Translations under genes and position numbers: made by a program
Notes under the pieces: model-generated
What the model was told of the DNA's origin: nothing
The model's database searches: none
Seen by the model: the letters and a program-made list of their open reading frames with translations, nothing else
Origin: Candidatus Polarisedimenticolia bacterium
GTDB lineage: Bacteria; Acidobacteriota; Polarisedimenticolia; Gp22-AA2; AA152
Reading direction: 5' to 3'
NCBI GenBank assembly: GCA_035764505.1
Contig: DASTZC010000215.1
Coordinates: forward strand, 2,402-66,401
DNA length: 64,000 bases
In this document: positions 1,265 through 42,200 of the stretch, piece after piece
Position numbering within the stretch: the first letter of the stretch is position 1
Layout of the letters: the number at the start of each line of letters is the position of its first letter

Positions 1265-1519
1265 GAACTCCCGGGCAACCGGCTCGACACCCCAGAATGC
1301 GGAGCGGAGCCGTCCCATCATCTCGTTGAACCGCCCCGCGTACCGACCATCGGTCCGGGGCGAAACTGCAATCCTTCCGTTCGGGGCCGGCTTCCCCAGC
1401 GGGGGCGGCCCTCGCCGTCATCTCGTCGTCGGGCGCCGCCCGCGCGGCAGCACCCGTGGCCGCGCAGTATAGCCGATGCACCCGGCGCCCGCTATCGCAG
1501 CCGGACGAGCGCGGCTCCC

Positions 1520-2695: not shown

Positions 2696-2762
2696 GAGAG
2701 CCTCCCCGGGGTTTTCACGTGGGTCATTCTAGCATTTCTCCCCCGCCGCGCCGCCGCACCCC

Positions 2763-3839
2763 GTGCGCCCCTCACGACCGGGGCTGACGCGGGAGGTCGA
2801 TTCCGCTATAGTGAGTCCCTCTTTCAGCTTTTCGGAGCCTCTCGTGTCTCGACCCTTCTCCGTCGGCGGCGTCAGCGTGAATCCGCCGCTGATCCTGGCC
2901 CCCATGGCCGGCATCACCGACCAGTACTTCCGCCGCATCCTCAAGCGCATCGGCGGGGTGGGGGTGGTGTCGATGGAGTTCATCTCCTCGGAAGCGCTGA
3001 CCCGCGGCAGCGAGCGCACCCGCTCGATGATGCACTATCACCCCGAAGAGCGGCCCCTGGCCATCCAGATCTACGGCTCCGACGCCGGCCGGATGTCGGA
3101 GGCCGCCGCCTACGTCGAGGAGATGGGGGCTGACATCGTCGACATCAACATGGGCTGCCCGGCCAACAAGATCCTGAAGGGATGCTCCGGCGCGGCACTG
3201 ATGGGGGACCTCGGCCTGGCGGAGAGGATCATCCGGGCCTGCCGTGACCGCGTGCGCATCCCTCTGACGGTGAAGTTCCGTCTCGGGCTGGACGACGGGC
3301 GCAGCAACTATCTCGAGCTGGGACGCATCTGTGAGGGGAGCGGCGCCGACGCGGTGGCGCTGCACGCCCGCACGGCGCGACAGATGTTCACCGGCCGGGC
3401 CGACTGGGGAAGGATCCGCACGCTGAAGCAGACCCTGTCGATACCCGTCAGCGGCAACGGCGATATCGTCACGCCCGACGACGCGCTGGCGATGTGGCGC
3501 GAGACCGGCTGCGACGGCGTCATGATCGGGCGCGGCGCGATGCAGAACCCATGGATCTTCCGGCAGACCGCCGCGCGCTTGCGCGGCGAGGAGCCCGCGC
3601 CGGTGACCCTGGCCGACCGGCGCGAGATGATCCTCGGGCACTTCCGGCTCCTGCGCGATCAGGAGGATGAGCGCTTCGCCCTGCACAAGATCCGCACTTT
3701 CACCGGCTGGTACACGCACGGCCTCCCCAACGGCCGGCAGCTGCGCCAGAAGATCTCGACGCTCCCCACGGTGGAAGCCTTCATCGAGGCGGTCGAGTCG
3801 TTCTTCGAAACCTTCCAGGACGCCACCGCCGCCGCCTGA
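2763..3839 (+). CDS. dus: tRNA-dihydrouridine synthase (DusB-like); true start may be an internal GTG near 2843
   Basis: PLILAPMAGITDQYFRRI...DINMGCPANKI...KFRLG motifs of the Dus TIM-barrel FMN enzyme family. Confidence 0.85.
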   Translation: MRPSRPGLTREVDSAIVSPSFSFSEPLVSRPFSVGGVSVNPPLILAPMAGITDQYFRRILKRIGGVGVVSMEFISSEALTRGSERTRSMMHYHPEERPLAIQIYGSDAGRMSEAAAYVEEMGADIVDINMGCPANKILKGCSGAALMGDLGLAERIIRACRDRVRIPLTVKFRLGLDDGRSNYLELGRICEGSGADAVALHARTARQMFTGRADWGRIRTLKQTLSIPVSGNGDIVTPDDALAMWRETGCDGVMIGRGAMQNPWIFRQTAARLRGEEPAPVTLADRREMILGHFRLLRDQEDERFALHKIRTFTGWYTHGLPNGRQLRQKISTLPTVEAFIEAVESFFETFQDATAAA

Positions 3840-23115: not shown

Positions 23116-24024
23116 TCAGCCCAGCGAGGCCTCGGCGAGGATGGAGTGCAGGCGATCCAGCCCGTCGGTCAGCGCCGCCGGACCAGGCTGCAGGATCAAG
23201 GCTGATTTGATTTCGTAGAGCTTGTCGCGCCGCACCGCCGGCACACAGTCCCAACCCGGCCGCGAGCGGATCGTGTCGAAGCGGACCTTGCGGCCGCACC
23301 AGGAGCCGATGATCACCTCCGGCTCGCGCCGGATGACTTCCTCGAAGCTGACGATCCTTCCCTTCGCTCCCTGCTCGCCGCGCAGCTCCGGGAAGATCTC
23401 CTCGCCGCCGGCAATCTCCACCAGCTCGCTGACCCAGCGTATCCCGGAGATGAGCGGGTCGGGCCACTCCTCGAAGAAGACTCGCGGGCGCCGCAGCAGC
23501 GCCGCTCCCTTTTCCCGCACATCCTCGATCCGGTCCTCCAGCTGCGTGGCGAGCGACTCGGCATCTTCCTCCCTTCCGACCATCCCGCCGAGCATCCGGA
23601 TCATGCGCAGAATCTCCTCGACGCTGCGCTGATTGAATGCCACGACCCAGACTCCCCGGCGCACCAGATCACGGGCAATGTCGGCCTGCAGATCGGAGAA
23701 GGTCAGGACCAGATCGGGCTTCAACTCCTGGATTCTCTCCAGGTTGGCCTGAATGAAAGCCGAAACCTTCGGTTTCTTGCGGGCCTCCGGCGGGCGGACG
23801 GTATATCCCGAGACTCCCACCACCAGATCACCGGCGCCAATCCGGTAGAGGACCTCGGTCGTTTCCTCGGTCAGGCAGACGATTCTGGATGGATACCTCG
23901 TTCCCAATGGCGGCTCCTGGAGAATCGATGCGTCGGTTTCTCTTGCGGTCTCGACGCAAGCCTTTGAAACCCGTGTGCTTAGAGGACAGCTGGCCGGCCA
24001 TGACGGTCCTGCCCCGCTTTTCAA
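23116..24024 (-). CDS. BtuF/FecB-like (class III, TroA-fold) substrate-binding protein; no recognisable signal peptide
   Basis: RIVCLTEETTEVLYRIGAGDLVVGVSGY...KPDLVLTFSDLQ... pattern of cobalamin/siderophore periplasmic binding proteins. The N-terminal 45 aa lack a hydrophobic h-region. Confidence 0.55.
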   Translation of the reverse strand: MKSGAGPSWPASCPLSTRVSKACVETARETDASILQEPPLGTRYPSRIVCLTEETTEVLYRIGAGDLVVGVSGYTVRPPEARKKPKVSAFIQANLERIQELKPDLVLTFSDLQADIARDLVRRGVWVVAFNQRSVEEILRMIRMLGGMVGREEDAESLATQLEDRIEDVREKGAALLRRPRVFFEEWPDPLISGIRWVSELVEIAGGEEIFPELRGEQGAKGRIVSFEEVIRREPEVIIGSWCGRKVRFDTIRSRPGWDCVPAVRRDKLYEIKSALILQPGPAALTDGLDRLHSILAEASLG

Positions 24025-24128
24025 GCCTCTCCGGCGAGTCCCTGCGCTGCCGGGTCAAGACCGCGTCCATTACAGCTTCCAGCTTGCCCGCAAACCTTTA
24101 TTTGATCCTTCCAACCCGCGGAAAAGGC

Positions 24129-24156
24129 TTGCAAAGAAGGCGGTTCATCGTATCAT
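24129..24156 (+). promoter_or_regulatory. Candidate sigma70-like promoter (TTGCAA-16-TATCAT) for giant gene 1
   Basis: Hexamers found by eye in an AT-richer patch 212 nt upstream of the ATG at 24368. Confidence 0.3.
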
Positions 24157-24367
24157 TACGCACACTGATAAGGGCTCGATGCCGCCGAATCCGCCGATTC
24201 CCCAGCGGGAAGGAGTGGAACAGGCGGTTTGTCTAATTCTCTCTCGGGGGTCACCCAGGCAACGGCGTTCCCGGATTTCTGTCTCGCCAGAGGGGGGGCT
24301 CAGACAGCCGGTACGACGCGCTCGCGTCGTGACCCACGCGCCTGCCACCGGCTCCGGCGGGATCCAA

Positions 24368-27300
24368 ATGGAGGCAGGCTTGAGTTCAACTCTCTCCGTC
24401 CGCTCCAGCAGCAAGTTCCTCCTTCTCGTTGTCGCGCTTCTTCCCCTTCTGACCGTTGCTTCCCTTCACAGCTGGGCCGTCAAGCCGGCGATCCACTCCG
24501 ACGTGGAGCTGGGAGACAAGCGTGACATCGACCAGGAAGCGCTCAATTTCTTCAAGCGCACCCAGCCCAAGCTGCACGACCGTCCGTTCGGGTTGAATCC
24601 CTTTGGGGAGAGCTTCACGCCGAAGCTTCCTCCGCCCAACGCGCGCCAGGGTCTCATCGAGACCTCGGCCGGATTCGTCGATCTGAAGAAGTCGGGAAAC
24701 GTCGACTTCCTCCCCGCCGCCTTCCGCGGCCGCAAGGAGCCGCGCGCCGGCTCGGGCAAGGACGTCCTGCTGGTGCAGATATCCGAGGCGGCGCTGCAGA
24801 GAGACGGCGTCGAGGGAATCGAAGAGCAGCTGCGGGAGCACGGGATCGCGGTGGTGAGCAGCGTCCCGGATCGCGGCTGGGTGCTGGTGGGCGGGGCCGA
24901 GGCGCTGTCCGCGATTCGCAAGGCCCCCTTCGTGGAGGCCTCGATCGTCTATCCGGCCGGCTTCAAGGTCGATCCGAAGCTGGGAACCACGCCGCTGCTG
25001 TCGCGGCTGCGCGCCATGTCGCGCGAGCTCGAGCTGGTGGCGCAGATCTGGCCCGGCTTCTCGGCGGATGAAGTGGCGAAAGAAGCGGGAGCGATCCTGG
25101 GCGCCGATCTGGTCGCGGTGCGCGGCATCAGCGACGGGACGCTGGCCCTACGCAGCAAGCCGGAGAAGGTCGCCGCCCTGGCGGAGATCCCCGGCATCCG
25201 GTCCATCCAGGAAGATCTCGAGTTCCTCCTCTCCGCGGCCGAGGTGCATACCACGGCACAGGTGGGCGAGGTCGAGCACACCGGCGGGGCGACGCCGTAC
25301 TGGGACATGGGAGTCGACGGGGGCGGGCTGGGCCTGGGCTCGGCCGTGCCGCCGCAGATCTTCGCCATCACCGACTCCGGCGTCAGCACCGACGCCGTCT
25401 CCTTCGCCCACAGCAACGTCGCCCTGACGCTGGCCCAGATCGTCGGCCTCATCAACGGCGGCACGCACCGCAAGGTGGTCGCCTACCAGCTGATCGGAAG
25501 CCACTCCCCCGGCGCGACGCTCGGGGAGACCTGCGACGGGCTGCTTTCGGGGTCCAACAGCCACGGCAACGTGGTGGCGGGCATCATCGGGGGCAACGGC
25601 TCGGCCCTCGGCGCCTTCGCCACGGTCACTCCGCTGCCCGGCTACGTGCGCACCAACGTCAACATGGACGGGATCGCGCGCGGCTCGCGCGTGGTGGTTC
25701 AGGACGCCGGGGCCGATCCCGAGTGCCCGATCGCCGAGCTGGTGGAGCACGGCGGCAACATCAACCCGATCAACCTGACCGACCGGATGGTGGCCGCGCG
25801 CGACGCGGGCGCCCGCCTGCACGTCATGCCCTTCGCCGTCCCCAACTTCTCCACCCAGACCAGCAGCGGCAGCCTGGGCATCTACACGGCGGAAGCCAGC
25901 GCCGTCGACACCTTCCTGGCCAACAACCTCGACTACCAGGTGTTCAGCCCGGTCGGCAACGCCGGCGCTGACCTGATCAACGGGCGCGACCAGATTCCCG
26001 ACCTGTTCGACGGCGTCTCCAGCGCCGGGAGCGATCCGCAGTGCGGCCTCGGCAACTGCCGGCCGCTGCAGATCTCGCCTCCCGCCACCGCCAAGAACTC
26101 GGTGACGGCCGGAGCGGTCTGCGAGGACGTGCAGACGATGTTCGGCGACTTCAACGAGGAAGAGAACGTCACCAACTACACCTCCAAGGGGCCGGCCACC
26201 GCCGCATCGCTGCGCACCGCGCCGATCCTGACGGGGGTGGGCAACGACAGGACCCCCACCGGCGGCGGGCCGCTCACCTATGGGATGGCGGCTTTCCGCT
26301 CCACCGACAACAATCAGGAAGGGACGGTGGAAGCGGCCCTCGACCAGCACAACCGCGGTACCTCCTTCGCCGCCGCCACGCTGACGGGCCAGGCATCGCT
26401 GGCACGCGACTATTTCGCCCAGGGCTTCTATCCGACCGGCACGCGCGTCGACACCGACAGGGTCCCGAACATCTCGGGAGCGCTGGTCAAGGCGCTGCTG
26501 GTGGCCTCCGCCAACTTCTCCGAGGAGCTCATCGGATTGACCTCCGGTGCGCAGGGCCTGGACGGCAGCGACGTCCTGGCCGACACGACGCGCGCCACCG
26601 TCGTTCCCATCGCGGGCAACATCGGCAACAACCGGCAGGGATTCGGGCGCGCCATCGTCTCTCAGGTGCTGCCGATCGTGAACTGGCCCAATCTGCCGAT
26701 CGGCGAGCCCGACACCCCCGAGTACCCGGCGCCCGGCCTGGTCGTGTGGGACCGCATCGGCACCAACGAGCAGACCATCAACAACACCTCCCGCATCGAG
26801 ATTGACCATCAGTTCCGCGTCACTTCCAACGTGGGGCAGGTGCGCGCCGCCCTGGCCTGGGCCGATCCGCCGGGCGAGCTGCTGGTGAACGACCTCGACC
26901 TGGAGCTGGTCTCCCCGTCCGGGAAGATTTACGACGGCAACAACTACAACCCCCTGAACTCGGTGGTGGGACAGTGGAGCCTGAGCCGGCTCAACGGCTC
27001 GCTCGACATCTCGGATGAGCGCAACCCGGTTGAGGCGATCCACCTTTCCAGCGATCCTGATCGCAACGTGGCGACCAATGACAACCAGCTCGAGGTCGGC
27101 ATCTGGACCGTGAAGGTCTTCCGCGGCTCCGGCGGCGCCACGCCCGGCCAGATCACCGCCAACATCAGCCAGGCCGAGGACGCCAACGCCAATTTCCACC
27201 TCGACTCGAACGTCTGCAACAACAAGAGCGTCAACAAAGGAGCCCCCTGCACCGGCAACGGCGACTGCACCGGAGCGGATCCGGGGCGCGCCTGCGGCGA

Positions 27301-30300
27301 GGACATGGATGCCGACGGCATCCTCGATACCGGAGGCCAGACTTACGGGCTGGCCATCTCCGGCCCGGTGGTGACCGTCCCCGGCGTCTTCAACCCGCCG
27401 GCGCACGCCAATTACCCGCAGAGCTACGTCCGCTTCGACAAGGCGGGCTACACCTGCTCCGATTCGGCCGGGCTGCGGCTGATGGACGTCGACGCCAGCG
27501 CGACGGGCCTCGGCTCCTCCGTCACCATCCGGGTTAAGAACGCGGTCGGGACCGTGGTCGATACCGAGACCAACCTCTCCTTCACCGACATCGGCAACCA
27601 GAACTTCTCGTCGATCAACCTGCCCGTGCGGCGCATCAGCGGAGGCACCGGCGCCACCAACAACGGCATCCTGGAAGCCGACAGCGGCTACAAGCTCGAG
27701 GTGACGGCCACCGACACGCCGCGCGACGCCATCGCCATCGCGCCGGTGAATTGCCAGCCCGACCTCCTCGCCGGGATTTTCGGCAACCCGGGAGGGCGCA
27801 ACGCGGCGGATCTGATCTTCGGCGGCTGCGACAACGATCAGTTCCTCGACGCCGGCGAGACGGTGACCTACTCGATCGCCGTGGTGAACAACTCGATCCT
27901 CAACGAGTACACCGGGGTGATCGCCAGCCTGTCGGTGTTTCGAGCCGACGGCGTCACCCCCTCCACCAAGGTCACCGTCCTCGACTCGCCGAAGGACATC
28001 GGCCGGATGCCCGCGGGCCAGCCGGTCGGCATCAGCTTCTCGCTGAAGGTGGCGACCGACGTGACGACCGAAGGGAACAAGGTGGTCCTCAAGCTGGCGC
28101 TTAGCCAGGGGACCGGCGGGACGCTGCTGTCCCAGGCCAATTTCTCCTTCACGCACGCCGTGGCCTCCAATCTGGAGGCGTTCCACTATTCCACTGACTT
28201 CCCCGCCGGCAGCGGCAGCCCCGTGGCGCGCGACCTGAACCGCAGCCTGGTGATCGAGCCGAACGACCGTCCCGGGCTGACGCTGGGTGCCGTGGACGAG
28301 ACGGTGACCTTCTCGTCGCTGTTCTTCACCGACCCGTCTACCGCGAAGATCAACAACCAGATCCAGGCCGGCGACGAGGCCTATCCGGTCGGCGGAGTCT
28401 TCATCCCGTCGGCCGACGCCAACAGCAACGGGGTGCTGGACCGCGGCATCCTGGCCACCGGCAGTCCTTCCGCCGGCGACCTGATCCCGTGGGATTTCGA
28501 TCGCAACAACGGCGGCTGGTACACGGCGCGCGATCCCCAGTCCAACATCGGCACCTCTCCGGCGACGCTGCCCATCTGGCATTACGTCACCAGCGGGCGC
28601 TGCGGCTTCCAGACGCAGAGCAAGGCCAATTGCGTCCTGGCCAACGGCACGCCGGGCAACGACCCCGACGGCGGCGGGCCGTCTCCCTGCGCCGCCATTC
28701 CCGCGGGGCTGGGCGGCTTCACCCCCGGCATGTGGCACACGGGCAACGGCACCGCATCTGCCGACGTCACCGACTGCGGCAATTACGGCATCGCCTTCAA
28801 CGCGGCGACCGCGACGCGGGCCGAGGCCCTCTACGACGTGATGTTCAGCCCGGTCATCCAGAAGGTCCACCAGGGCCTCGACGCCAACGGCTTCCCCTTC
28901 ACCGTCGAATTCCAGCGCCTCGGCTACAACGCCACGGTGCAGTTCGACGCCGAGGCCACCCTGTTCACCGACATCGATAACAATGTCGACAAGGACTATC
29001 CCAACGTCCTGATGGGCGAGCCGCTGCGCGGCGACGGCCTCAGCTACTACCTGAGCAGCCTGCTCGGTCCGGTGGACCCCTACTACACGCAGACCAATTA
29101 CAACCAGGTCACCTTCGGCCCCACGACCGATCCGGACAACTCGCTGGCGGGCGCGCCTCCGACGCTGACCGGAGATGAGACCGGCTTCCCAGGCATCGAC
29201 AGCGGCAGCCTCAATCCCTACGCCGTCAAGCCGAAGATCCCGGTGGCGCCGACCAACCTGCGCCCCTTCCCGGGCCCCAACGAGGTGCATGCCGGGACCG
29301 ACACGGTGGCGGGCCCCTCGCGCAACGTCGACATCGGCCTGGTCGGCTATGAGAACACCGGTCTGCAGTTCTACGTTCCGGGCGACTCCGGGAACCGCTT
29401 CCAGATCGGCCTGGGCTTCCTCACCTTCGAGGGGTCCGGCGGCGCTTCCGTGGGTGATTACGGCGCCGGCATCGACGACGTGGTCTTCGAATGGGACGAG
29501 GTACACCCGCTCGCCGAAACGACCCCCTCCTGCAACCTGATCGGCGGCGCCTGCAGCGGCGGCTCGGCCAACGGCCAGCGCTGCGCCACCAACGCCCAGT
29601 GTCCAGGCGGCACCTGCATCCAGACGCCCGGACAGATTGCCGCCGGACTGCCCTGCGCCACCCTGTCGGTCGACCGCACCAACCTGTACGACTGCGACGA
29701 GGCGCTGCAGGTGGTCATCAACGATCCCAAGGTCAACTCCGACCCGGCGCGCGGCACTCCGACCACCATCGACACGGTCCAGTTCCGCGCCTTCTCCAAC
29801 GCCGATCCCTTCCCCGGCGAGGTGGGGGTGGCGACCGAGACCGGCATCAACACCGGTATCTTCAAGGGGACCATCACCGTGTCGGGAACTTTCAACTCCC
29901 CCGGCACCGTCTTCGTCGTTCCCTCCAGCGAGCAGAACATCTTCGCCGCCTATGAAGACCCGCTGTGCGACTCGAACCACAACGGCGTCTTCGGGCAGTC
30001 CAGCTTCCTCAACCTGGACGGCGACGGCATCGACGCCGCGCAGGGCCGCGACGGCATCTGCGGCACCGCCGACGACGTTCCCGCGCAGTTCGGGGCCGAC
30101 GGCAAGTGCGGCGCCCAGAAGCACTGCAGCAACAACCCGGCGCTGGTCTGCTCCGTCAACGCCGACTGCGGCGCCGGCACCTGCAATGCCGCCACCATCG
30201 ACGACACCGGCGACAACTGCGCCACCGTCTACAACCCGACGCAGCTCGACGGGGACGGGGACAAGGTCGGCGACATCTGCGACAACTGCCCGTTCCTGTC

Positions 30301-33300
30301 CAACGCCGATCAGGTCGACATCGACGCCGACGGCGTGGGCGATCGCTGCGACTGGGACGACGTCGACTTCGACGGCGTGGCCAACGAGGTGGACAACTGC
30401 CCCGATGTCTACAATCCGGGCCAGGAGAGCACCGGCGGAGGGACGGTCGGCACCGCCTGCAACAACAACAGCGACATCGACGGTGACGGCATCGCCGACA
30501 AGGTCGACAACTGCGTCAATGTGAGCAACGCCACCCAGGCGAACTCCGACCGGCTCGACCCCATCACCAGCGCGATAGTGGACAAGCTGGGCGACGCCTG
30601 CGACGGCGATTGCAGCGGCACCTGCACCGGCGGGACGCGCGCCGGGCTCGGCTGCTACCTGAACTTCGACTGCCCCGGCGGCGCCTGCACCACCTCCCGC
30701 ACCTGCTCCGCCTGGAACGACGACGTCGACAAGGATGCGGTGCGCGACACCTTCGACAACTGCCCCGTCGCCTCCAACCCGACCACGCTGCCGGGCAGCA
30801 ATCCCCCGGTCCAGGCCGACGGGAACTTCAACGGTCTGGGGGACGTTTGCGATCCCTCGGGGAACTTCGACGAGAGCCGCAACGGCATCCCGGACGACGT
30901 GGAGAACGGCCCCTTCTTCGCCCTGGCGGTCTCCTGCAACAAGGTGCCGCTGGGCGACCTGGTGGTTCTGAAGACGCTGGTGCGCGACCTGCCGGAGGTG
31001 TCGCAGTGCGGCGCCGCCGGCAACCAGCCCTGCGGCGACAACGACGTCTTCGCCGACCCCGGCGAGATGGTGCGCGTGCGGCTGGTGCTGCAGAACATCT
31101 CGAACCTGAACCTGACGGGGGTCACGCTGTCGCTTTCGACGGGCGATCCCGACATCACCTGCATCACCGACACGACGATCCGGATCCCGTCGCTGGCGGC
31201 GGGAGCCACGCTGGATACGCGCAACCTGGGGACCTGCGCCGGCGGCATCAAGGCCGGACAGCGCTGCTCGAGCAACTCCGAGTGCCCCGGATCGACCTGC
31301 ACCGCCTTCGGGGCGGACGGCGATTACTTCGAGATGGTCATCTCGCCCACGGTGAACACGACCGACGTGACCAACCCGGCGCGAGGCAACCTGACGCTGA
31401 CCCTCAACTCGGACCAGGCGGGAGGCACCGAGCGCACCATCCCGATTTCCTTCATCGAGGATCTGGACCTGCCGGGCGGCGCTCCGCCGGCCTACACGCC
31501 GGCGAAGTGCACGGTGGACAGCACGACCCCGGGGGCCACCTGTGCCACCGATGCCAACTGCCAGGACGGAGTGCACCCGAACGGGAAGTGCCTGCCCGGT
31601 CTCATCTATGAAGGGTTCGAGACGACCACCGGGTTCCCCGGCACGATCGGCTTCCTGATGAACAGCGGCTCGGGCCCGAACCTGATCGCCGGCAAGCCCT
31701 GCTTCGGCTTCGTGGAAGTTCTGGGCCGGACCCCGGCCTCGGGCTGCCAGATCGATCCCGACAACGACAACGACTGGCACATCCATGGCCTGTCCTCGCC
31801 CGACTCGGGCAAGGCATTCCAGGGCGATCAGTCAGGCCACTGGGGGCTGCACACCAATACCACCAGCCGGGCCGGCGATACGGTGCACTTCCGACAGGTC
31901 GCGGCTTTCGTCACCAACCCGATCAACCTGACGCTCAGTCCGGGCGTCGACGATTTGTTCATGTCCTTCTACCAGATCGTCGATCTGCTGGACGACAACC
32001 GGGTCAACTTCGCGCCCGGTCAGGCCGGCGATTATGTCGACGTGCAGATTCAGGTCGACACCAATCCCGCCCCCGCGACCGACAGCTTCGGGCGCTGGAT
32101 GAAGCTGGAGCCGTTCCAGAACGTCTACGACCACACTTCCCAGGTCTTCTCCTGGTTCGGCTACTGCGAGTTCACCCCGGCCGACGCCGCTGAGTCGACC
32201 AATCCCACCGTGTTCGGCGAGACGATGTGCTTCCCCGACGGCGTCTGGTCGCACTCCGGGAACGTTCTGGGGGCGAACACCTTCGACATCTTCCAGGCCC
32301 AGGGACCGGGCTCGCTGGGCAGCCGCGGCGACGGCGTCTGGGTGCAGAGCAAGTTCAACCTGGCGCTGTACATGGGCCAGCGCGTCCGCATCCGCTGGAT
32401 CGGGCAGGTCTGGGAGTTCGCCAACGGCTGGGAGTCCTACCTGCAGCCGCCCGGAAGCTCGCCTCCCTTCGACGTGGGTCTCAACGACGACGGCTGGTGG
32501 ATCGACGGCGTCCAGATCACCGGCGCCATCACCTCGCAGTTCTCGCCGGTGCTCGAGCCGACCAGCCTGCCGCTGGGAAGCCAGTGCCCGGCCCTCAACA
32601 GCCCGGCCAACTGCAACGAAGCGCTCGGGACCAGCAACGGCATCACTCCCAAGCTCGTCCTGATCGACAGCGACGGCGACGGGGCCCTGGTGCCCGGCGA
32701 GGCCTTCCGCCTGGATGCTCTCGGCACCGACAACCCCGGCGGCTGCAAGAGCGGCATCCTGCAGTTCCAGTTCCTCAAGGACGGCGTGGTGGTGCAGGAC
32801 TGGTCCACCACGACCTCCTACGTCTCATCGTTCAGCGGGCTGGCGCAGTACACCGCCAAAGCGCGCTGCGGCACCGACTTCTCCTGCACCTCGGCGGCCT
32901 TCGACCTGAACGGTGTCTTGGCGGGAGGCACCTCGGCGTTGCAGGGGATCTGTCCGGCCATCCCCTTCCCCGTCACCCTGCCGGATCTGATCCTGTCGGG
33001 GACCGCTCCGACGGTGATCGCCGTCCCGAACCTGCTCGATCAGCCGACTGGGGAGACCACCTGCTCGCCGCCGGTGCCTCCCTCGCTGCAGTACACGATC
33101 GGTCCGATGCTCCCCTCCACCTACGGGCACAACCTGCTGCGCACCGACGCCGTCGGGCGCCTGGTGGGCAACGGCACCTGCGTCACCGGTCCGGTGATCG
33201 GCCAGAATTGCTTCACAAACTCCGAATGCAGCCTCCCGGGCAACCCGGGCACCTGCTCCGGAGGCGGCACCGGCGTGCTCCAGAAGTTCAAGGAGTTCCA

Positions 33301-33715
33301 GGGCGCGGGCGGAAACTGCGCCGACCCGAACACCTCATCGTGCAACATCGATGTGACGCCTCTGAACATCTGCGAGCCGGCCTCGCTCGTCCATCCACCC
33401 CACCCGGTGGAATTCCTCGATTCCACCACACCGGGCTTCTTCTGCCAGGGCGAGGAGCAGACGATCAACATGCCCTGCACCACCGATGCCCAGTGCAAGC
33501 CGCTTCAGACCTCGCGCGGCATCTGCGCGGCCGGCCTCTACTACTACCTGGCGGCGGCCTTCACCAACGCCGGGGCCGGCGGCACGCTGACGCACAATCA
33601 GTTCAACGGCCAGCCGGCGCTGCTGCACACGGCGCGGACCGATGCGGGGCCAATCAACATCCCGTACACGTTCGGGCCCTACATCGATCCGGCGTCCGCC
33701 CTGAACTGCCCGTAA
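24368..33715 (+). CDS. Giant secreted multidomain protein 1 (3116 aa): signal peptide, propeptide-like region, subtilisin S8 protease domain, Cys-rich CxxxxCPGGxC repeats, and thrombospondin type-3 Ca-binding repeats
   Basis: Start at MEAGLSS (24368) gives a signal peptide [22 protein letters not shown]. S8 triad motifs AITDSGVS (Asp), [13 protein letters not shown] (His), PVGNAGAD (oxyanion Asn), [13 protein letters not shown] (Ser). TSP3 repeats [35 protein letters not shown]...[11 protein letters not shown]. Rho-independent terminator follows. The in-frame upstream extension from 23975 is not supported by signal-peptide logic. Confidence 0.8.
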   Translation: [3115 protein letters not shown]

Positions 33716-33782: not shown

Positions 33783-34583
33783 TCAGGTAGAGGGGACGGC
33801 TGCGGCCCCCCCCTTCTCCTTGATGGCCATCGGCTCCGCGCGATTGCCTGAATCTCTCCGGCGTCCGGGCAGTCCGGCGAGAAGCTGCTCGCCGCGGCGC
33901 ACCGAGGGAGCGACGGGCTGCTTCGGAATGCGGAAAGCCGCCCCCGCTTCGAGAAGCTTGGCATCGATGGAGGCAGGCTGGATCAGATGTCCCGCCGTAT
34001 CGCGCGGACTCTCCACGCTCCAGAAGATGAAGCGGACATGGAGTCCGCCCGCCAGGGCCGTCGGACCGCCGGGGCTCATGTCGGGCTTTTTCCGGTACGA
34101 GACCCGCGCGAGCCCGGGATGGGGATCCGCGATGACGGGGAGAACCAGGATGGATTGGATCCGGAAGGCCCCCTCCGTGCATCGCCCGACGAACATCTGC
34201 TTGCTGAGCGGCTTTCCGGCTGCATCGGCGAACTGCACCCACAGGTAGGCATTGCTCACGGGCGGCTTGCTCACGGGCGGCACCGGAGTCTCCTCCGGCG
34301 GGTGGGCGTCTTCCAGCCCATCTCCAAGACCATAGCTTCCCGTTTCGAAGCTGCTGAAGTACAGCCCCAGGTCGAGGCCCGGCAGCTGGACGCTCCCGGT
34401 CGTCCTGATGGTCGTATGGTGCGGCTCGCAGGCCAGCATGAGAATGTCGGCTCTTACGAGCACCGGGACCGGGAAGATCCTGGGCTGCTCTATCTGCCGC
34501 TCTACGGTTATCGCTTCGCTAAAGCCAGGACCGAGCACGAGAAGCGCGGCCATTACGGTGGGAATCCGGAAACCAGGGCGCAT
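33783..34583 (-). CDS. Secreted hypothetical protein (267 aa), no recognised family
   Basis: Start at MRPGFRIPTVMAALLVLGPGFSEA (signal peptide) preceded by a strong SD GGAGGAGG. The upstream TTG/M1 extension of the track ORF is unlikely. Confidence 0.5.
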   Translation of the reverse strand: MRPGFRIPTVMAALLVLGPGFSEAITVERQIEQPRIFPVPVLVRADILMLACEPHHTTIRTTGSVQLPGLDLGLYFSSFETGSYGLGDGLEDAHPPEETPVPPVSKPPVSNAYLWVQFADAAGKPLSKQMFVGRCTEGAFRIQSILVLPVIADPHPGLARVSYRKKPDMSPGGPTALAGGLHVRFIFWSVESPRDTAGHLIQPASIDAKLLEAGAAFRIPKQPVAPSVRRGEQLLAGLPGRRRDSGNRAEPMAIKEKGGAAAVPST

Positions 34584-34630
34584 CCTTAATCCTCCTCCTC
34601 GCCTCCCCCGTGGAAGTGTGTTGAGCCTTT

Positions 34631-34639
34631 GGGGGGGGG
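34631..34639. repeat. G9 homopolymeric tract (C9 on the minus strand) 48-56 nt upstream of the secreted-hypothetical start codon
   Basis: Direct reading of ...ctttgggggggggtactc...; the longest homopolymer seen in the window. Confidence 0.85.
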
Positions 34640-34869
34640 TACTCAACCGGTCCTGCGAGTCCTGATTCGGAACGGCTTCGCCCCATGGAGCGTGGTGGGC
34701 GAAACTCGCAGTCTGCTAGGTTAAGCAGCCATGCGCAGGGAAACGATGGAGGAAAGACCCGAATCGCTGGCTCGCCGTGGTGGGTGGACGGACGCAGGTG
34801 GTTCATCGGAGCGTGCTGATGCGAGGGATCAACCTACGGTGGATCCGCGCTCGAGCAGCCGATCGGCAG

Positions 34870-34966: not shown

Positions 34967-35041
<75 letters not shown>

Positions 35042-35219: not shown

Positions 35220-35432
35220 CGCTTTGCAGGATCAATTCTCCCCCCGTCCAGATCCAGGTCACCAGGAAAGCTGACTCATCCTTCGTGATTCGAGCGTTTA
35301 GCGGCACGTGTCGACGAGCACGGCGGCGAAATGCCCCGTGGCATGGTCATTGCCTTTCTCCCCCACTGCTCTCTGCCTTGCGCAATTGGAAACACCTGGA
35401 TAACCGGTCCGGTGACCGAAGGAGAAAAGGTA

Positions 35433-38400
35433 ATGACGAAAGGTCGGCTTTCGTTGGTCATTTTCCTGCTGATCGTGGTGGTCGCGGTCTTTCCGGCGCG
35501 CAGCATCATTACGCGCGGTCCGAGCGGGAGCTGGACTCTGCTCTCAACGTCCGCTGACGTCCGGCCGGACGCCAGCGCGGCGTTGATGGATGATGGGCGG
35601 GTCCTGATCGCGGGCGGCATGAACGGGGAAGAACCGAGCGCGGCGGCGCAGGTCTTCACCTCCGACGGCGAGTTTGTCGCGGTCGCTTCGATGTCCCACG
35701 CGCGCGGCGGCCATCAGGCGGTGAAGCTCGCGGGCGGAGCGGTCCTCATCGCGGGCGGTGTCGGCTGGGGCGGAAACCCGCATGGCAGCGCCGAAATCTA
35801 CGATCCGGCTTCGGATTCCTGGACCTCCACCGAGCCCATGGTTTCGCCGCGCACCGAGTTCAGCGCCACCCTGCTGAAAGACGGGCGGGTGCTTCTCGCC
35901 GGCGGGAACAACGGGGGCGCGATTCTGTCTTCGATGGAGATCTTCGATCCCCAGACGCAGGCTTTCTCGAGCTCGGCGGCGGCGCTGGGCACGCCGCGCC
36001 GCGGCCACAGCGCCACCCTCCTGATGGATGGCCGGGTCCTGATTGCCGGCGGCTCGGACGGTTCATCGGTCCTGTCCACGACCGAAGTCTACGACCCCGC
36101 CACCGATTCGATGGCGCAGGGACCCAGCCTGGCTGCCGCGAGAATGGAGCACTCCGCGAGCCGGCTGCTGGATGGCTCGGTCCTCCTGGCCGGCGGCTCC
36201 GACGGCTCCGCCGACCTTGCTTCGGCCGAGATCGTGGATGCCCACGCTTTCGCCGATTCGACCCCGACCGCCGGCATGGCCGCCGCGCGCCGCGGCCATC
36301 GCTCCGTAGTGCTCCCCGATAACGGCTCGGTCCTGATTCTGGGCGGCGCCTCGGGATCTGATGCGATCGCGGAGGTCTTCCGCCCCGCGAGCGGCACGTT
36401 CGTCGCCACCTCGGCGCAGCACGCGGCCCATTCGGGCGGAATTGCGAGCGCCTTGTCGCAGGAAGGCGTTGCTTTGTCGGCGGGTGGCGGATCCACCGAG
36501 GTCTACTCTTTCGCAACCGTCAAGACCGACAAGGAAGACTACGCGCCAGGCACGATCGTCACCATCACCGGCTCCGGCTGGGAGCCGGGCGAGACGGTCG
36601 GCATCACGCTGCACGAGGTGCCGGAGCTCCATGAGGAGCTGGCGTGGAGCACCACGGCCGACGAGACGGGAGCGATTCACGACACCACTTTCTCCCCCGA
36701 GTGGCAGCATCAGGGGGTGCGCTTCTATCTGGTGGCCTCAGGCAGCGTCTCCGAGGCCATGAACACCTTCACCGACGGGACGCCGACGCGCATCACCTCC
36801 TCCTCGATGAGTCCCAGCTCGGGCGCCTGCCGCTCCACGATCACCGCGAGCGCTACCCTGGAGTTCAAGACGGGCCCGAACAACTCTCCTTTCGCCGGGC
36901 TTGCGGGCAAGCCCGTGACCTTTACCCTGGGAACGGAGAGCGCCACCGGGATCACCGGCTCCAACGGCGTGGCATCCGTGAGCCTGACGGTCGCGCCCGG
37001 TGCCGCTTCCCTGCGGGCGGAGTTCGCGGGGGACGCCACCTTCAACGACACCGCCACGACCATTGCGTTCAGCGTCACGGGAGTTTGCAACAATGACAGC
37101 ACGGCGCCGGTCATCACCCCGAACGTCACCGGATTGCTGGGGACGAACGGCTGGTACGTGAGCAATGTGAGCGTCGGATGGAGCGTCAGCGATCCGGAAT
37201 CGAGCGTGACCAACATGTCCGGATGCGGCGCCAGCAGTGTCAGCGCCGACACCAACGGCGTTACCTTCACCTGCATCGCGACCAGCGCCGGCGGAACGGG
37301 CTCCCGGTCGGTCACCATCAAGCGCGATGCGACGGCCCCCAGCGCCTCGCTGGCGGTCACCTCCGGGACGCTCGGTGCCAACGGCTGGTACACGAGCGAT
37401 GTCACCCTCGCCACCTCGGGCAGCGATTCGATGAGCGGTCCGGTGAGCTGCACGCCGCTCCAGCAGCAGACGACCGATACTGCGGGGACCACGTTTTTCG
37501 GCTCCTGCACGAACGGAGCCGGGCTGATCTCGCCGGCAACGCCGCTGACGATCAAGGTGGACAAGACGGGTCCGAACGCGGTGATCGCCGTGACGGACGG
37601 CACGGCCGGCGCCAACGGCTGGTACGTCAGCGACGTCACCATCGGCACGTCGGGCAGTGATTCGGTCAGCGGTCCGGTCACCTGCACCGCCGACCAGCAC
37701 CAGAGCGACGAGACGGACGGAACCACCTTCAATGGCTCGTGCACCAATGCTGCGGGACAGAGCATGGACGCGGCCCCTCTGACCGTGAAGGTCGACAAGA
37801 CCGGTCCGAGCGCTCAGATGGCCGTTACCTCCGGCACGGCCGGCTCCAACGGCTGGTACACGAGCGACGTAACCATCGGCACCTCGGGCAGCGATTCGGT
37901 CAGCGGACCGGTCACCTGCACGGGCGACCAGCATCAGAACGACGAGACGACCGGCGCCATCTTCAGCGGCTCCTGCACCAACGACGCCGGGCTCAGCACC
38001 GACGCCGCGCCGCTGAGCGTCAAGGTCGACAAGACCGGCCCGAGCGCTCAGATGGCCGTTACTTCCGGCACGGCCGGCTCCAACGGCTGGTACACGAGCG
38101 ACGTAACGATCGGCACGTCGGGCAGCGACGAGGTCAGCGGACCCGTCACCTGCACGGGCGACCAGCACCAAAACGATGAAACGACCGGCGCCAGCTTCAG
38201 CGGCTCCTGCACGAACGACGCCGGCCTGATCACCGGCGCCACCCTGACCGTCAAAGTCGACAAGACCGGCCCGAGCGCTCAGCTCGGCGTCATCTCCGGC
38301 ACGCCCGGTTCCAACGGCTGGTACATCAGCGACGTCACCATCGGTGCCTACGGCTCCGACTCGATCAGCGGCCCGGTCAGCTGCACCGGGGATCAATACC

Positions 38401-39110
38401 AGACCAGCGACACCACCGGCGCCACCTTCAACGGCTCCTGCACCAACCAGGCCGGCCTCAGCACCAGCGCCGCGCCGAAGACCATCAAGCTGGACAAGAC
38501 CGCCCCGGTGATCTCCATCACCTCTCCGGGATCGGGCGGCTACGTCCTGAACTCCGTGGTCGCATCGCAATTCTCCTGCAGCGACGCGACTTCCGGCGTC
38601 AGCACCTGCTCCGGATCGCTGGCCAATGGCGCCAGCCTCGATACCGCCAGCATCGGCTCCAAGTCGGTGACGGTCACGAGCACGGACCTCGCAGGCAACC
38701 AGGCGACTCTGACGAAGTCCTACAACGTCCAGTTCGCCAGCCTGGGCGCCTGTCTCGATTCGACCGGGCACACGATCCTCCAGCCCATCAACGCCGACGG
38801 GACCAGCGTCTTCAAGCAGAAGAGCACCGTCCCGGCGAAATTCCGGGTGTGCGATGCCAACGGGGTTTCCGTCGGGTCGTCCGGTGTGGTGAGCAGCTTC
38901 CGGCTGATCCAGAAGACCTACGGGACGGCCACGGACGTGGACGAGGCGGTCCTCTCCACCACCCCGGACACCGATTTCCGTTGGGATCCGACGGGCAGGC
39001 AGTGGATCTTCAACATGTCGACGAAGATGATGATCGCGAATACCACCTACGTCTACCGCGTCACCCTCGCCGACAACACGACGATCGATTTCGCCTTCGG
39101 ATTGAGGTAA
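35433..39110 (+). CDS. Secreted Kelch-repeat beta-propeller protein with a C-terminal array of seven ~80-aa Ig-like tandem repeats (1226 aa)
   Basis: RBS GGAGAAAAGG; signal peptide MTKGRLSLVIFLLIVVVAVFPARS; six Kelch-like blades (DGRVLIAGG / DGSVLLAGG motifs); repeats KVDKTGPSAQMAVTSGTAGSNGWYTSDVTIGTSGSDSVSGPVTCTGDQHQNDETTG... Confidence 0.8.
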   Translation: MTKGRLSLVIFLLIVVVAVFPARSIITRGPSGSWTLLSTSADVRPDASAALMDDGRVLIAGGMNGEEPSAAAQVFTSDGEFVAVASMSHARGGHQAVKLAGGAVLIAGGVGWGGNPHGSAEIYDPASDSWTSTEPMVSPRTEFSATLLKDGRVLLAGGNNGGAILSSMEIFDPQTQAFSSSAAALGTPRRGHSATLLMDGRVLIAGGSDGSSVLSTTEVYDPATDSMAQGPSLAAARMEHSASRLLDGSVLLAGGSDGSADLASAEIVDAHAFADSTPTAGMAAARRGHRSVVLPDNGSVLILGGASGSDAIAEVFRPASGTFVATSAQHAAHSGGIASALSQEGVALSAGGGSTEVYSFATVKTDKEDYAPGTIVTITGSGWEPGETVGITLHEVPELHEELAWSTTADETGAIHDTTFSPEWQHQGVRFYLVASGSVSEAMNTFTDGTPTRITSSSMSPSSGACRSTITASATLEFKTGPNNSPFAGLAGKPVTFTLGTESATGITGSNGVASVSLTVAPGAASLRAEFAGDATFNDTATTIAFSVTGVCNNDSTAPVITPNVTGLLGTNGWYVSNVSVGWSVSDPESSVTNMSGCGASSVSADTNGVTFTCIATSAGGTGSRSVTIKRDATAPSASLAVTSGTLGANGWYTSDVTLATSGSDSMSGPVSCTPLQQQTTDTAGTTFFGSCTNGAGLISPATPLTIKVDKTGPNAVIAVTDGTAGANGWYVSDVTIGTSGSDSVSGPVTCTADQHQSDETDGTTFNGSCTNAAGQSMDAAPLTVKVDKTGPSAQMAVTSGTAGSNGWYTSDVTIGTSGSDSVSGPVTCTGDQHQNDETTGAIFSGSCTNDAGLSTDAAPLSVKVDKTGPSAQMAVTSGTAGSNGWYTSDVTIGTSGSDEVSGPVTCTGDQHQNDETTGASFSGSCTNDAGLITGATLTVKVDKTGPSAQLGVISGTPGSNGWYISDVTIGAYGSDSISGPVSCTGDQYQTSDTTGATFNGSCTNQAGLSTSAAPKTIKLDKTAPVISITSPGSGGYVLNSVVASQFSCSDATSGVSTCSGSLANGASLDTASIGSKSVTVTSTDLAGNQATLTKSYNVQFASLGACLDSTGHTILQPINADGTSVFKQKSTVPAKFRVCDANGVSVGSSGVVSSFRLIQKTYGTATDVDEAVLSTTPDTDFRWDPTGRQWIFNMSTKMMIANTTYVYRVTLADNTTIDFAFGLR
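37060..38720 (+). repeat. Seven tandem ~240-bp coding repeats (the central four near-identical at nucleotide level) inside the Kelch/Ig gene
   Basis: Units starting near 37060, 37300, 37540, 37780, 38020, 38254 and 38490. The units at 37780 and 38020 share long identical stretches (gtcaaggtcgacaagaccggcccgagcgctcagatggccgttac...). Confidence 0.75.
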
Positions 39111-39261: not shown

Positions 39262-42200
39262 TCAGAAGTAGACCTGGAACCCGAACTGAAAGCGGCGGCC
39301 GAAATCGCGCGTGGCGATGGAACGCTCGACCGTGTGGACGATCTCGCCGAACTGCAGCCATTCCACCTGGTAAACCCGCAGGTCGTCGGTGTTCAGCAGG
39401 TTATAGATTTCCAGGAAACCGGACGCCGATGCCTTGCCGAGGACGAAGTTCTTCTGCACCCGCACGTTGAACAGATAAGACGCCGGGTTGCGATGGATGT
39501 TGCGTCCCTCCCGCACCAGAGCGCCGGTGCCGTTCTGGTCGATGTGCCCGTACACCACCCTGCCCTGGGCGAAGCCGGCGTCGTCCAGCGCGCGGCCGTT
39601 GAAGACCTCCGAATAGGGCAGTCCCGACGACCACTGGGCGCTGCCGCCGATCCGCCAATCCCCAGGCAGATAGGCAATGGCATTGAGCTTCACCACGTGC
39701 CGCTGGTCGTAGCTCAAGTAGCCGTGCTCGTACTCGACGAGCGAGGGATCGTCGCCGCTTTCGGAGAGATAGCTCTCCGCGTCCCCGGTCGCCTCGGACC
39801 AGGTGTAGCTGCCCTCGAGCTGCCATTTCCGGCTGAGCCGCCGCACCAGCTCCAGCTCCCATCCGCGGTACTCCTGGGCATTGCTGTTTCCGAGGTGGAA
39901 GATGCGATTGAAAAAGAAGTTGTGCACGTAGAGATCGGGTAGCCCGTCAGGAATGGGCAGGCACTGGTTCCGCACGGGGACGTCACCGCCGCTTCCGCAG
40001 ACAACCTGTCCGAGGGCATCTCGTGGCATTCCGGTGACGGGATCGATCGTCTGATAGTGGTTGATGTCGACATCCTGCAGCTGGTCCCGGTAATCCCGGC
40101 GGATATAGGTGAGGCGCAACGACACTTCCGGAGCAATCTCCCGCTCGAACCCCAGCGTCATCTCGTCGCTGTAAGGGGTGGACAAATCGCGGTCCACCGA
40201 GGTGATCGAGGCCGGGGAGTTGGAGATGACCGGGCCGATCTGGCGGTCAGGCTTCCCGGTCTGGCTGTTCACGCCGTCGAAATCGAAGCTGTAGTAGCGC
40301 GACAGCTGGTCGGGCCCCTGCTCCAGAGCGATCGACTGCAGGAAGAGCTTGTCGTAGTAGCGTCCCCACGACATGAACCCTTTCGTCTTGCCGTCTCCCC
40401 AGGGATCCCAGGAGACGCTCAGCCGGGGCGCGAGGTTATGGTTCTCCAGCTCCACCGTCTCGGGCCGGCGGGGATTGATGCCGCTGGCCAGGAAGTCAGC
40501 CGCCGTGGGAGCCCTCCCCAGGAGCTTTTCGAGAAACGGCGAGAGCAGCTCCCGGCTCAGCTGATGCCGGGCGAGACGCTTCGGGGCAGCCGCTTTCAGC
40601 CCGGAGTAGATCTGGGAGATGCGCAGGTTGGGTGTGACTCCCTGACACTGTGCGAGAGGGTCCCCACAGAGGCCGGCGGTGCCCACCTGATCGTAGGGAT
40701 TCGTGTCCGAGCCGGCGGCGAGCAGCAGCCCATCGTAGGCGCGGCGCTCCTCGGCGGGATCGAACGGCGTGTAGCCGGAGGAAGTGAGACGCTCGACGTC
40801 CAGCCGCAGCCCCAACCCGATCGAAAGATTGGGGACCGGCTTGTAGCTGTCCTGGAAGTAGACCCCGAAGTTATCCCCGTCCGCCGTCGGGTTGCCGCTC
40901 ACGGGAATGGCGAAGAACCCGAAGAAGCCTCTTGGGGTCTGGCTCGGGGTGTGCCTGGTCGCAACCCGGGTCTGCAGCCCCTGTGCGAACAGGGTTGGCC
41001 TTATTTCGGTGTAGCCGGCATAGCTCTCCTGCTCGTAGACCAGGCCCATTCGAAGGTCGTGGGTCCCGAACAGATCTCCCACATAGGCCGAGGAGTCCTC
41101 CCTCAGCGTCAGGCGTGAGCGGTGGTCGTCGTGGCTGTAGGGATAGGGTCCGGAGGTACGTCCGTAGGAATCCTGTAGGTAGTCGCGGTCGGGGGCCTGG
41201 GGACGGCGATATTCCCCCGCCTCCGGAAGGCCGTTACCGTTGACGTCGTTCCAGAAGGGGAAAGGGGTTTGCCCCGAATCGGCCACGACATCCAGCAGCC
41301 CATTCGCGTTGGCGTCCTCCGTGTCGAAGACACCGTTGCCGGCGGTGCCGGCGGCCACCGGCCGCGAGGCGCCCAGACAGTAGCCGAAGGCCGACTGGGC
41401 GCAGGGCAGATTGAGGCCCGTGTCCTCATCCGGATCCACGGTGCCGTCGCGGTCGAGATCTATTTCCCGGTCGATCGAGCCGTTGCAGTTGAGGTCCTCG
41501 TGCTCCCGCCCCTCACACCCGAATTGCGTGGTGCGGCGGCCGTCCGCGTCCAGGTCGTATTGAGCGTCGGGGCGGCTCGCGAAGAGCTCCTCGTGGATGT
41601 CGTACGCACCATCGAAGTCATAGTCCTCCCCGGGGTCCCGCTCGTTTGCCTCCAGGATGCCATTCTGGTTGTAATCGATGAACAGCGTCCCGTTGCCGTT
41701 GGTGTCGGCGTCGATCGTGGGGACGACCTGGAAACGATTGTCGAACCAGGAGGCCGAGGTCTCGAAGATGAGGGTCGACTTGGGCAGCGCCGAGTGCTTG
41801 AGGGTGTAGGTCGGTCCGCCGCGGCGGAAGGTGTAACCCGATTCGACGGCGGTAAAGCTCCCCAGACCCTGGTCCTCGTCCTGGGTCCTATCGAAGATCA
41901 CCGAGAGCGCCAGCTTCTGTGCCGCCGTCGCCTGCCAGGTCAGCTTGCCGAACTCGCGAAGCCCCGTGGTGCGCGTCACGTAGGATTGCGTCACCGCGTT
42001 CACCGGCGTCTCTTCCTGGATGTACTCGCTGGCCAGGTAGTACCAGAGACGATCGCGGACGAAGGCGCCGGAGAGCGACAGGTACGGCTTGATATCGGTG
42101 AACGACATCTCGCGCACGCTCGAGCCGCCGCCTAGCCCACTGAGGTCCGGCGGATCGACCCCGGCGCCATCGCCGTCGACGCGATGGCTGCGAACGAAGA

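Follow-up and report, generated by a model that had tools for sequence, protein, structure and literature searches.

Giant divergent subtilases with scattered four-cysteine modules and a thrombospondin type 3 array in Polarisedimenticolia

Proteases of the KP-43 type, which belong to the subtilase (S8) clan, are secreted enzymes of broad specificity (PMC7471176, PMC11982257), made with an N-terminal propeptide that is not of the I9 kind (PMC11982257). In KP-43 itself (1wmd; 434 aa in total) and in SubHal (5fax), a catalytic domain with the triad order Asp-His-Ser and an oxyanion Asn is followed directly by a beta-barrel bearing the motif L-x-W-x-D-x-P...NDLDL. In thrombospondin and COMP (PF02412; 1yo8, 2rhp, 3fby), contiguous DxDxDGxxDxxDxC repeats, the thrombospondin type 3 (TSP3) repeats, form a calcium-binding wire. 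The animal TSP3 wire precedes a lectin-like domain. Gingipain polyproteins (Kgp, RgpA) join a protease to 'cleaved adhesin' jelly rolls. TraA, the outer-membrane-exchange receptor of Myxococcus, has a stalk built from tandem copies of a Cys-rich repeat of the Myxococcales (TIGR04201), beside PA14 and MYXO-CTERM (PMC3325183). Here we describe a 9-kb gene lying on the + strand of a 64,000-nt stretch, hereafter the window, from the metagenome-assembled genome (MAG) of a Candidatus Polarisedimenticolia bacterium (GCA_035764505.1, contig DASTZC010000215.1). Its 3,115-aa product carries an S8 domain followed by a barrel, eight four-Cys modules and a TSP3 array. We think it probable that this protein is a Sec-exported extracellular mega-protease of the subtilase clan, stabilised by calcium and disulfides, with the Cys modules acting as loop staples.

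A search of 5.8 billion proteins recovered 57 collinear full-length relatives (2,830-3,410 aa, 33-87% identity), and conservation within this family runs over the full length, beyond the recognisable domains. The first-pass annotation had proposed a subtilase joined to Cys-rich modules and TSP3 repeats in a non-standard architecture, and had suggested profile hidden Markov model (HMM) searches as a check; the architecture was borne out by Pfam on an excised segment, by the family profile, by Foldseek and by the TSP_3 scores. With residues 301-800 excised, Pfam Peptidase_S8 (PF00082) scored 30.4 bits, above its cut-off of 21.8, and the same model matched 12 of 16 homologues (best E 1.1e-16). 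The whole-protein Pfam scan returned TSP_3 only and no S8, and a single-sequence phmmer search of the S8 region against the PDB gave no match at E<=1. The family profile matched only two kinds of PDB entry, thrombospondin/COMP and the subtilases SubHal and KP-43. Its SubHal alignment spans the oxyanion 'GN', the 'TAKN-x-VGA' strand, 'SS-x-GP' and the barrel motif 'L-x-W-x-D-x-P...LVNDLDL', with the family motif 'LRxALAWPDPP...LVNDLDLE' aligned to residues 339-389 in the SubHal C-terminal domain.

The fold search agreed with the profile. An AlphaFold2 (AF2) model of residues 285-1010 (predicted local distance difference test, pLDDT, 56.6; predicted template modelling score, pTM, 0.70) was matched by Foldseek to KP-43 with an E-value of 1.4e-15, a template modelling (TM) score of 0.63 on the target and ~18% identity over 652 columns, and to SubHal with an E-value of 9.8e-15, the two alignments covering 652-670 columns. 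The segment after the catalytic domain, residues 791-1005, is modelled as beta-rich at pLDDT 70-92. The model places Asp336 after a beta-strand and has a helix beginning at both His399 and Ser666, which is the arrangement of subtilisins.

The three catalytic motifs had been described as atypical, and each lies at the place given for it: AITDSGVS at residue 333 (nt 25364), NSHGNVVAGIIGG at residue 397 (nt 25556) and NRGTSFAAATLTG at residue 662 (nt 26351). Their form is the norm in this family, whose variants are D-N/S-G, HGNVVAG and a Phe or Tyr replacing the Met that follows the Ser (the Met222 equivalent), all of which leave the catalytic residues unaffected. Asp336, His399 and Ser666 are invariant in 57 of 57 homologues and in 60 of 60 further genome-derived copies, and they are also kept in two sister proteins that are only 25% identical (P0059 and P0060). 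The three residues follow one another in the order usual for S8 peptidases, within D-x-G, H-G-x-x-x-A-G and G-T-S-x-A motifs. His399 and Ser666 align to His64 and Ser221 in what we take to be the sequence of subtilisin BPN'. The oxyanion residue of the query is Asn531, within PVGNAG, which aligns to the AGNEG block of SubHal.

One alternative is that the S8 domain is a pseudo-protease, the motifs DSG/DNG, HGNVV and GTSFA marking an inactive enzyme that has been retained as a scaffold for binding. It would fit a Pfam score of only 30 bits, the absence of S8 from the whole-protein scan, a catalytic core modelled with poor confidence, and the finding that about a third of the family have Ser, His or Gly where the oxyanion Asn would stand. 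A dead site is, however, expected to drift, whereas the triad is invariant across the 117 sequences at 33-87% identity and persists in the distant sisters; the query moreover retains the canonical oxyanion Asn, and the differences in the motifs are confined to non-catalytic positions, Phe/Tyr standing at the Met222 equivalent throughout the family. Because the unusual motifs are the family norm and the catalytic residues are all retained, they are not a sign of a pseudo-enzyme, and we regard this alternative as very improbable. Judged from these alignments, the S8 domain appears divergent yet catalytically complete.

The relationship to KP-43 is nevertheless remote, since identity in the structural alignment is ~18%. 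Unlike KP-43, the protein has more than 100 aa of extra loops between Asp and Ser, a Phe or Tyr directly after the catalytic Ser, a pro-region of ~260 aa and ~2,100 residues beyond the barrel. Its first 37 residues form a putative Sec-type signal peptide, with a basic n-region, the hydrophobic stretch FLLLVVALLPLLTVASL and SWA followed by V; the family consensus likewise has a 'WA-x-R' motif downstream of the hydrophobic stretch. Residues 38-300 would serve as a propeptide, by analogy with subtilases (PMC11982257). This segment has no Pfam match, even at E<=10, and in that respect resembles the non-I9 propeptide of KP-43. Residues 125-205 and 206-292 within it may be a weak internal duplication (hhalign, 55% probability only).

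The second element of the architecture is the four-Cys module. Eight copies of the pattern C-x7-11-C-x5-C-x4-9-C are present, whereas 2,000 shuffles of the same protein yielded 0.04 copies on average and never more than 3. All six modules listed in the first-pass annotation are there (nt 29573, 30650, 31256, 31535, 33200 and 33473); the ones starting at residues 950 and 1920 had been missed. The modules are spread from residue 950 to residue 3053, so that the description of modules interspersed with TSP3 repeats holds for those at residues 1920 and 2086 alone, the other six lying outside the array. An HMM built from 78 family modules (consensus TCSGGTNPGAPCTSNADCPGGGTCT) matched a single ORF (open reading frame) of the window, that of the target, and gave no hit among the ~1,500 ORFs of the fetched loci that do not belong to the family; a pattern scan found no four-Cys module in the other giant genes of the window.

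The pattern recurs in homologues, as would be expected of a real module, at ~33 distinct sites once merged by reference coordinate, most of them specific to one clade and 13 limited to one sequence each. All eight sites of the query are retained by six of its seven closest homologues, and seven sites by the remaining one. Several sites coincide exactly with clades: sites 2300 and 3037 with the 8-member clade of the query, and site 1407 with a 6-member clade. In alignment slices, the modules are clean insertions of ~20 residues flanked by conserved blocks. This is seen for module 2, a clean ~20-aa insertion when compared with distant homologues, and for module 5, which is confined to the query's 8-member clade; Cys2392 and Cys2398 of module 6 occur in 12 of 57 sequences, the others being gapped. 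Module 4 is the family-wide exception, with Cys2086, Cys2096, Cys2102, Cys2107 and Cys2113 present in 56 of 57 sequences and the full four-Cys pattern in 48 of 57. Recent intragenic duplication was considered and rejected, because DNA identity between modules of equal length is ~65%. The alignments thus depict the modules as clade-specific insertions into a conserved scaffold, not as a fused block.

The modules had been compared, with some uncertainty, to a Myxococcus-type repeat, TIGR02232 being the model named. That model was not reported in the NCBIfam scans of the whole protein (E<=0.1), of the eight modules and four segments (E<=10) or of 31 family modules (E<=1), its presence in the NCBIfam release being assumed. 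The comparison was half right, in that TIGR04201 was the sole curated model touched by the modules: 17 of the 31 family modules matched it at E<=1 (best 9e-5), and in the query it scored 18.1, 15.3 and 15.2 bits on modules and 16.5 bits on a natural segment of 231 aa, all below the cut-off of 25. TIGR04201 was not reported in the whole-protein NCBIfam scan. Weak matches in Pfam to the EB module (PF01683; 17.6 bits against a cut-off of 24.3), DUF7107 (7.4-7.8 bits against 24.6) and WAP were set aside as sub-threshold noise. A profile of two modules run against the 5.8 billion proteins gave 146 candidates, 0 of them at E<=1, in what is a test of low power.

Like the TIGR04201 repeat, the modules are predicted extracellular disulfide units of ~22-25 aa, with three strongly conserved Cys plus extras and a C-x5-C-x4-C core. 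Unlike the tandem repeats of the TraA stalk, they stand singly, scattered in loops, in an Acidobacterial host, and neither PA14 nor MYXO-CTERM was matched in the target. The likeness to TIGR04201 is a weak resemblance, not membership. A bolder proposal, which we put forward only tentatively, is that the four-Cys unit (~25 residues) may be a self-contained mini-domain gained independently dozens of times at the ~33 loop or linker sites, in effect an intragenically 'mobile' disulfide staple sharing ancestry with the Myxococcus TraA stalk repeat, and that the family may represent a new class of extracellular enzyme, 3,000 residues in length and encoded by 4-6 paralogues in each genome, in which two large domains lack detectable relatives outside the family.

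The TSP3 array is the third element. Pfam TSP_3 (PF02412, cut-off 25) scored 56.8 bits over 4 stretches of the whole protein and 78.1 bits over 5 stretches of the segment, and the family profile matched thrombospondin-2 (E 6e-50) and COMP (E 2e-48) in the PDB. These profile matches show the array to be genuine. It had been placed at about 30240-30545, which is too narrow a span, as the repeats occupy about 30011-30901. Its contiguous repeats lead into beta-sandwich domains, much as the animal wire leads into a lectin-like domain; unlike in thrombospondin, the host is bacterial, the array lies in the middle of a protease, it is interrupted by two four-Cys modules, and the thrombospondin C-terminal domain is unmatched.

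Coordinates of all the features are collected in Table 1.

Table 1. Features of the giant gene and its product, in window coordinates
Feature	Position (nt)	Residues	Strand	Basis
Whole gene	24368..33715		+	ORF/translation; G+C at third codon positions (GC3) 0.913; identical NCBI protein; 56 full-length homologues
Sec-type signal peptide (putative)	24368..24478	1-37	+	Sequence inspection
Pro-region-like segment	24479..25267	38-300	+	Family-wide conservation
Divergent S8 catalytic domain	25268..26737	~301-790	+	Pfam, family profile, Foldseek, invariant residues
Catalytic Asp	25373-25375	336	+	
Catalytic His	25562-25564	399	+	
Oxyanion Asn	25958-25960	531	+	
Catalytic Ser	26363-26365	666	+	
Beta-barrel/jelly-roll domain, carries module 1	26738..27382	791-1005	+	Alignment, model
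Module 1	27215..27295	950-976	+	Regular expression; 9 sequences within a 12-member clade
Repeat A of the twice-occurring domain	27755..28162	1130-1265	+	hhalign
'bigA', family-exclusive conserved domain	28163..29527	1266-1720	+	phmmer
Module 2, CSGGSANGQRCATNAQCPGGTC	29552..29617	1729-1750	+	Regular expression; TIGR04201 18.1 bits, E 0.002
TSP3 repeat array (predicted calcium-binding), interrupted by modules 3 and 4	30011..30901	1882-2178	+	
Module 3, within the first TSP3 repeat	30125..30184	1920-1939	+	Regular expression; TIGR04201 15.2 bits; 10 carriers
Module 4, plus Cys2113	30623..30688	2086-2107	+	Sole family-wide site
Repeat B of the twice-occurring domain, holds module 5	30920..31492	2185-2375	+	hhalign
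Module 5, in a loop of repeat B	31235-31300	2290-2311	+	TIGR04201 15.3 bits
Module 6	31508..31591	2381-2408	+	Regular expression; merged site 2370-2392 with 10 carriers
'bigB', MAM/CBM/cleaved-adhesin-like jelly roll	31595..32557	2410-2730	+	AF2 model, fold search
Small beta-sandwich domain	32558..32947	2731-2860	+	AF2 strands, pLDDT 72-86, model residues 350-440
Variable C-terminal region with modules 7 and 8	32948..33715	2861-3115	+	Low column conservation, many gaps in homologues
Module 7	33179-33256	2938 on	+	Regular expression
Module 8	33443-33526	3026 on	+	Regular expression

Over ~2,000 aa of the protein, no Pfam model was matched in any of 16 family members. Part of this length is a domain that occurs twice, repeats A and B being related with 94% probability in hhalign; both are presumably beta-sandwiches, and residues 1148-1251 of repeat A have a weak NCBIfam match to rhom_dep_M36 (E 2.5e-5), a model of sortase-dependent M36 peptidases. 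The domain that we call bigA appears to be exclusive to the family: phmmer against 1.84 billion representatives gave 58 hits only, whose lengths and positions fit family members or fragments, and neither Pfam nor the PDB gave a match. Many of its polar residues are invariant across the family. The second large domain, bigB, is unrelated to bigA in hhalign (residues 1265-1720 against 2410-2730) and its model (pLDDT 65) is a jelly roll made up wholly of beta-strands, with the gingipain 'cleaved adhesin' domain as its best fold match and MAM adhesion domains next, a resemblance at the level of the fold, at 13% identity. It contains the conserved residues His2471, His2473, His2491, His2495 and His2589 (window 31775-32134), which could form a metal site, and ends with DDGWWID. 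At the C-terminus (...ALNCP), the final Cys-Pro (33707-33712) is near-invariant, Cys3114 being present in 55 of 57 sequences despite the poor conservation of the ~250 residues before it. This terminal Cys-Pro corresponds to no known sorting signal, and neither the sequence nor the NCBIfam scan yielded a PEP-CTERM, a MYXO-CTERM or a lipobox.

Putting these parts together, the protein would be a protease built as follows. A long N-terminal pro-region precedes a KP-43-like unit made of a subtilisin fold (Asp336/His399/Asn531/Ser666) and a beta-barrel, and the remaining ~2,100 residues would form a non-catalytic series, fixed across the family, of predicted beta-sandwiches, an exclusive domain, a TSP3 calcium 'wire' and a jelly roll. 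After export, this accessory series may hold the enzyme on polymeric substrates, matrix or cell surface, where the activity could serve nutrition. The eight modules, ~25 residues each and placed in loops or linkers, would most likely each close two disulfides.

Several observations weigh against this picture of an exported protease. The query's own Pfam support for S8 is modest and leaves the Asp block uncovered, the local confidence of the AF2 model falls to pLDDT 44-55 near Asp and His, and ~30% of family members have Ser in place of the oxyanion Asn. That the modules would work as staples or knobs, stiffening exposed segments and protecting them in a proteolytic extracellular setting, is purely our inference. 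The loci examined yielded no secretion system, no anchor signal and no conserved partner gene. Finally, non-catalytic sequence makes up about three quarters of the protein, so that external proteolysis may not be its main role.

This last point leads to the principal alternative, in which the protein serves chiefly as an adhesin of the surface or matrix, as a cohesion protein or as a structural protein. Its function would then reside in the TSP3 wire together with the jelly rolls and Cys knobs, and the S8 domain would act in cis alone, either to remove the pro-region or to cleave the giant into fragments that stay associated, as happens in gingipain polyproteins. The non-catalytic ~75% of the length is conserved in every paralogue, and the presence of 4-6 diverged paralogues per genome is common among surface-protein families. 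The Myxococcus cohesion protein MtsC also has TSP3 arrays, and the query matches its model (NF047638) at 100.2 bits, over the TSP3 part only and short of the equivalog cut-off of 350; the fold matches of bigB to adhesion domains and the likeness of the modules to the stalk repeat of a cell-cell recognition receptor (PMC3325183) point the same way. Against it stand the lack of any anchor signal among those sought, with a C-terminus that reads ...ALNCP, and the secreted, broad-specificity nature of KP-43-type enzymes; an invariant catalytic apparatus is equally expected of a true exoprotease. The gingipain parallel is itself limited, the target having a serine (S8) in place of a cysteine (C25) protease and no C-terminal domain of the type IX secretion system. 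On these grounds we hold the adhesin alternative to be rather unlikely, and keep the exported, calcium- and disulfide-stabilised protease as the preferred interpretation.

The gene itself is well defined. A single + strand ORF runs from 23975 to 33715, and from ATG 24368 encodes the 3,115 aa. The G+C content at codon positions 1, 2 and 3 is 0.62, 0.50 and 0.91, in a genome of 67% G+C, which identifies the coding frame and a genuine gene. GenBank holds a protein of 3,111 aa at 100% identity, from the MAG of a Candidatus Polarisedimenticolia bacterium, under the sole name "MAG TPA: thrombospondin type 3 repeat-containing protein". The alternative start TTG 24380 gives this length of 3,111 aa, and a GGAGG at 24370-24374, 5 nt before the TTG, is well placed as its ribosome-binding site; the start codon is thus ambiguous (ATG 24368 or TTG 24380). 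Within the giant gene lies an antisense ORF of 2,212 aa (25148-31786, - strand), exceptionally long in a window of 64-71% G+C, and it could be argued that the giant ORF is a high-G+C artefact, or that the antisense ORF is the true gene. The + frame has, however, a GC3 of 0.913, whereas the antisense frame is rich in G+C at codon position 1 (0.92), and the + frame also accounts for the matches in Pfam, in the PDB and in the fold search and for each of the 57 homologues, so that this idea is already refuted and has next to no probability left. Given its high G+C at position 1 and its Gly/Val/Ala/Arg-rich composition, the antisense ORF is a shadow of the + frame that could mislead gene callers.

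Among GTDB species representatives, we counted 129 relatives at 76 loci, nearly all in MAGs of Acidobacteriota/Polarisedimenticolia ('gp22'). A MAG typically holds 4-6 paralogues, with six loci in SOY_30_metabat_319 and five each in M3-S_metawrap_bin.116, SMAG_U11119 and SMAG_U11126. Seven loci come from MAGs labelled Patescibacteria, Dongiaceae, Cryosericum, Verrucomicrobiia, Binatia, Actinokineospora and Chloroflexi, respectively. Their G+C content (0.675-0.71) lies inside the 0.64-0.72 of all loci, and because all loci share this 64-72% G+C we suspect that the non-Acidobacterial labels reflect taxonomic mislabelling or mis-binning. The sister giants P0059 and P0060 (~2,800-3,000 aa) are collinear with the family and have intact Asp/His/Asn/Ser motifs; neither has a TSP3 match, the alignments skipping that region, nor any Pfam annotation.

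Synteny of the genes upstream of the giant gene (MqnA-like, GcvT-like and a periplasmic binding protein) was found only in one close relative. In other lineages, two paralogues of ~3,000 aa flank an IF-2B / tsaD / lepA / signal-peptidase-I cluster (L002 1-17156; L003 8001-24805), and a signal-peptidase-like ORF adjoins family members in 15 of 79 loci. We considered a functional gene partner and set the idea aside, as this neighbourhood looks like the inherited position of one orthologue group.

Two further giant genes lie in the window, both on the - strand. The first (44955-55718; 3,587 aa) combines a fervidolysin-type prodomain with a canonical S8 domain (206 bits), numerous Ig-like domains of the HYDIN/ASH type, TSP3, PKD and HYR. 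This giant is like the target in belonging to the same genome, in its size of ~3,600 aa and in joining S8 to TSP3, and unlike it in having a canonical S8 and no four-Cys modules; BLAST aligns it to the target over the TSP3 repeats only, and its prodomain is unrelated to the target's pro-region. The other (56014-63948; at least 2,644 aa, with a start possibly outside the window) carries Ig-like/ASH domains, TSP3, a partial HYR and Kelch-like fragments, and S8 was not detected in the part present. Because one of these giants has S8 and TSP3 and the other TSP3, giant, presumably secreted multidomain proteins recur in this Polarisedimenticolia genome.

Elsewhere in the window, an ORF convergent with the giant gene (33783-34646, - strand) has a GC3 of 0.76-0.79 and a hydrophobic N-terminal stretch and was not matched in Pfam; it probably encodes a genuine hypothetical protein, small and secreted. 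A tRNA-Thr (CGT; 34967-35041, + strand) occupies the 1.6-kb gap between the giant gene and a gene for a Kelch-propeller protein of 1,259 aa that has a repetitive array at its C-terminus (35331-39110, + strand). These are followed by a 1,244-aa CarboxypepD_reg and TonB-dependent-receptor-like outer-membrane protein (39262-42996, - strand) and an amidase (43114-44832, - strand).

Multidomain subtilases are a known kind of protein, and the family does not overturn current understanding; what is unusual in its evolution is the repeated dispersal of one module. The repeated insertion of this disulfide module into a conserved scaffold provides a clean natural case of loop decoration by a mini-domain, and the dispersed module links an Acidobacterial protease with the stalk repeat of Myxococcus TraA. 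A KP-43-like core stabilised by calcium and disulfides, as predicted here, could also have practical interest for enzymology. Since the whole-protein Pfam scan misses S8 and the GenBank name omits it, peptidase censuses may overlook the family, and we found no paper in the literature describing it. Polarisedimenticolia, a group of uncultured Acidobacteriota, are widespread in soils and sediments (PMC11245096, PMC8528874), and for these organisms, 9-kb protease genes in 4-6 copies per genome would represent a sizeable, so far undescribed investment in extracellular protein handling.

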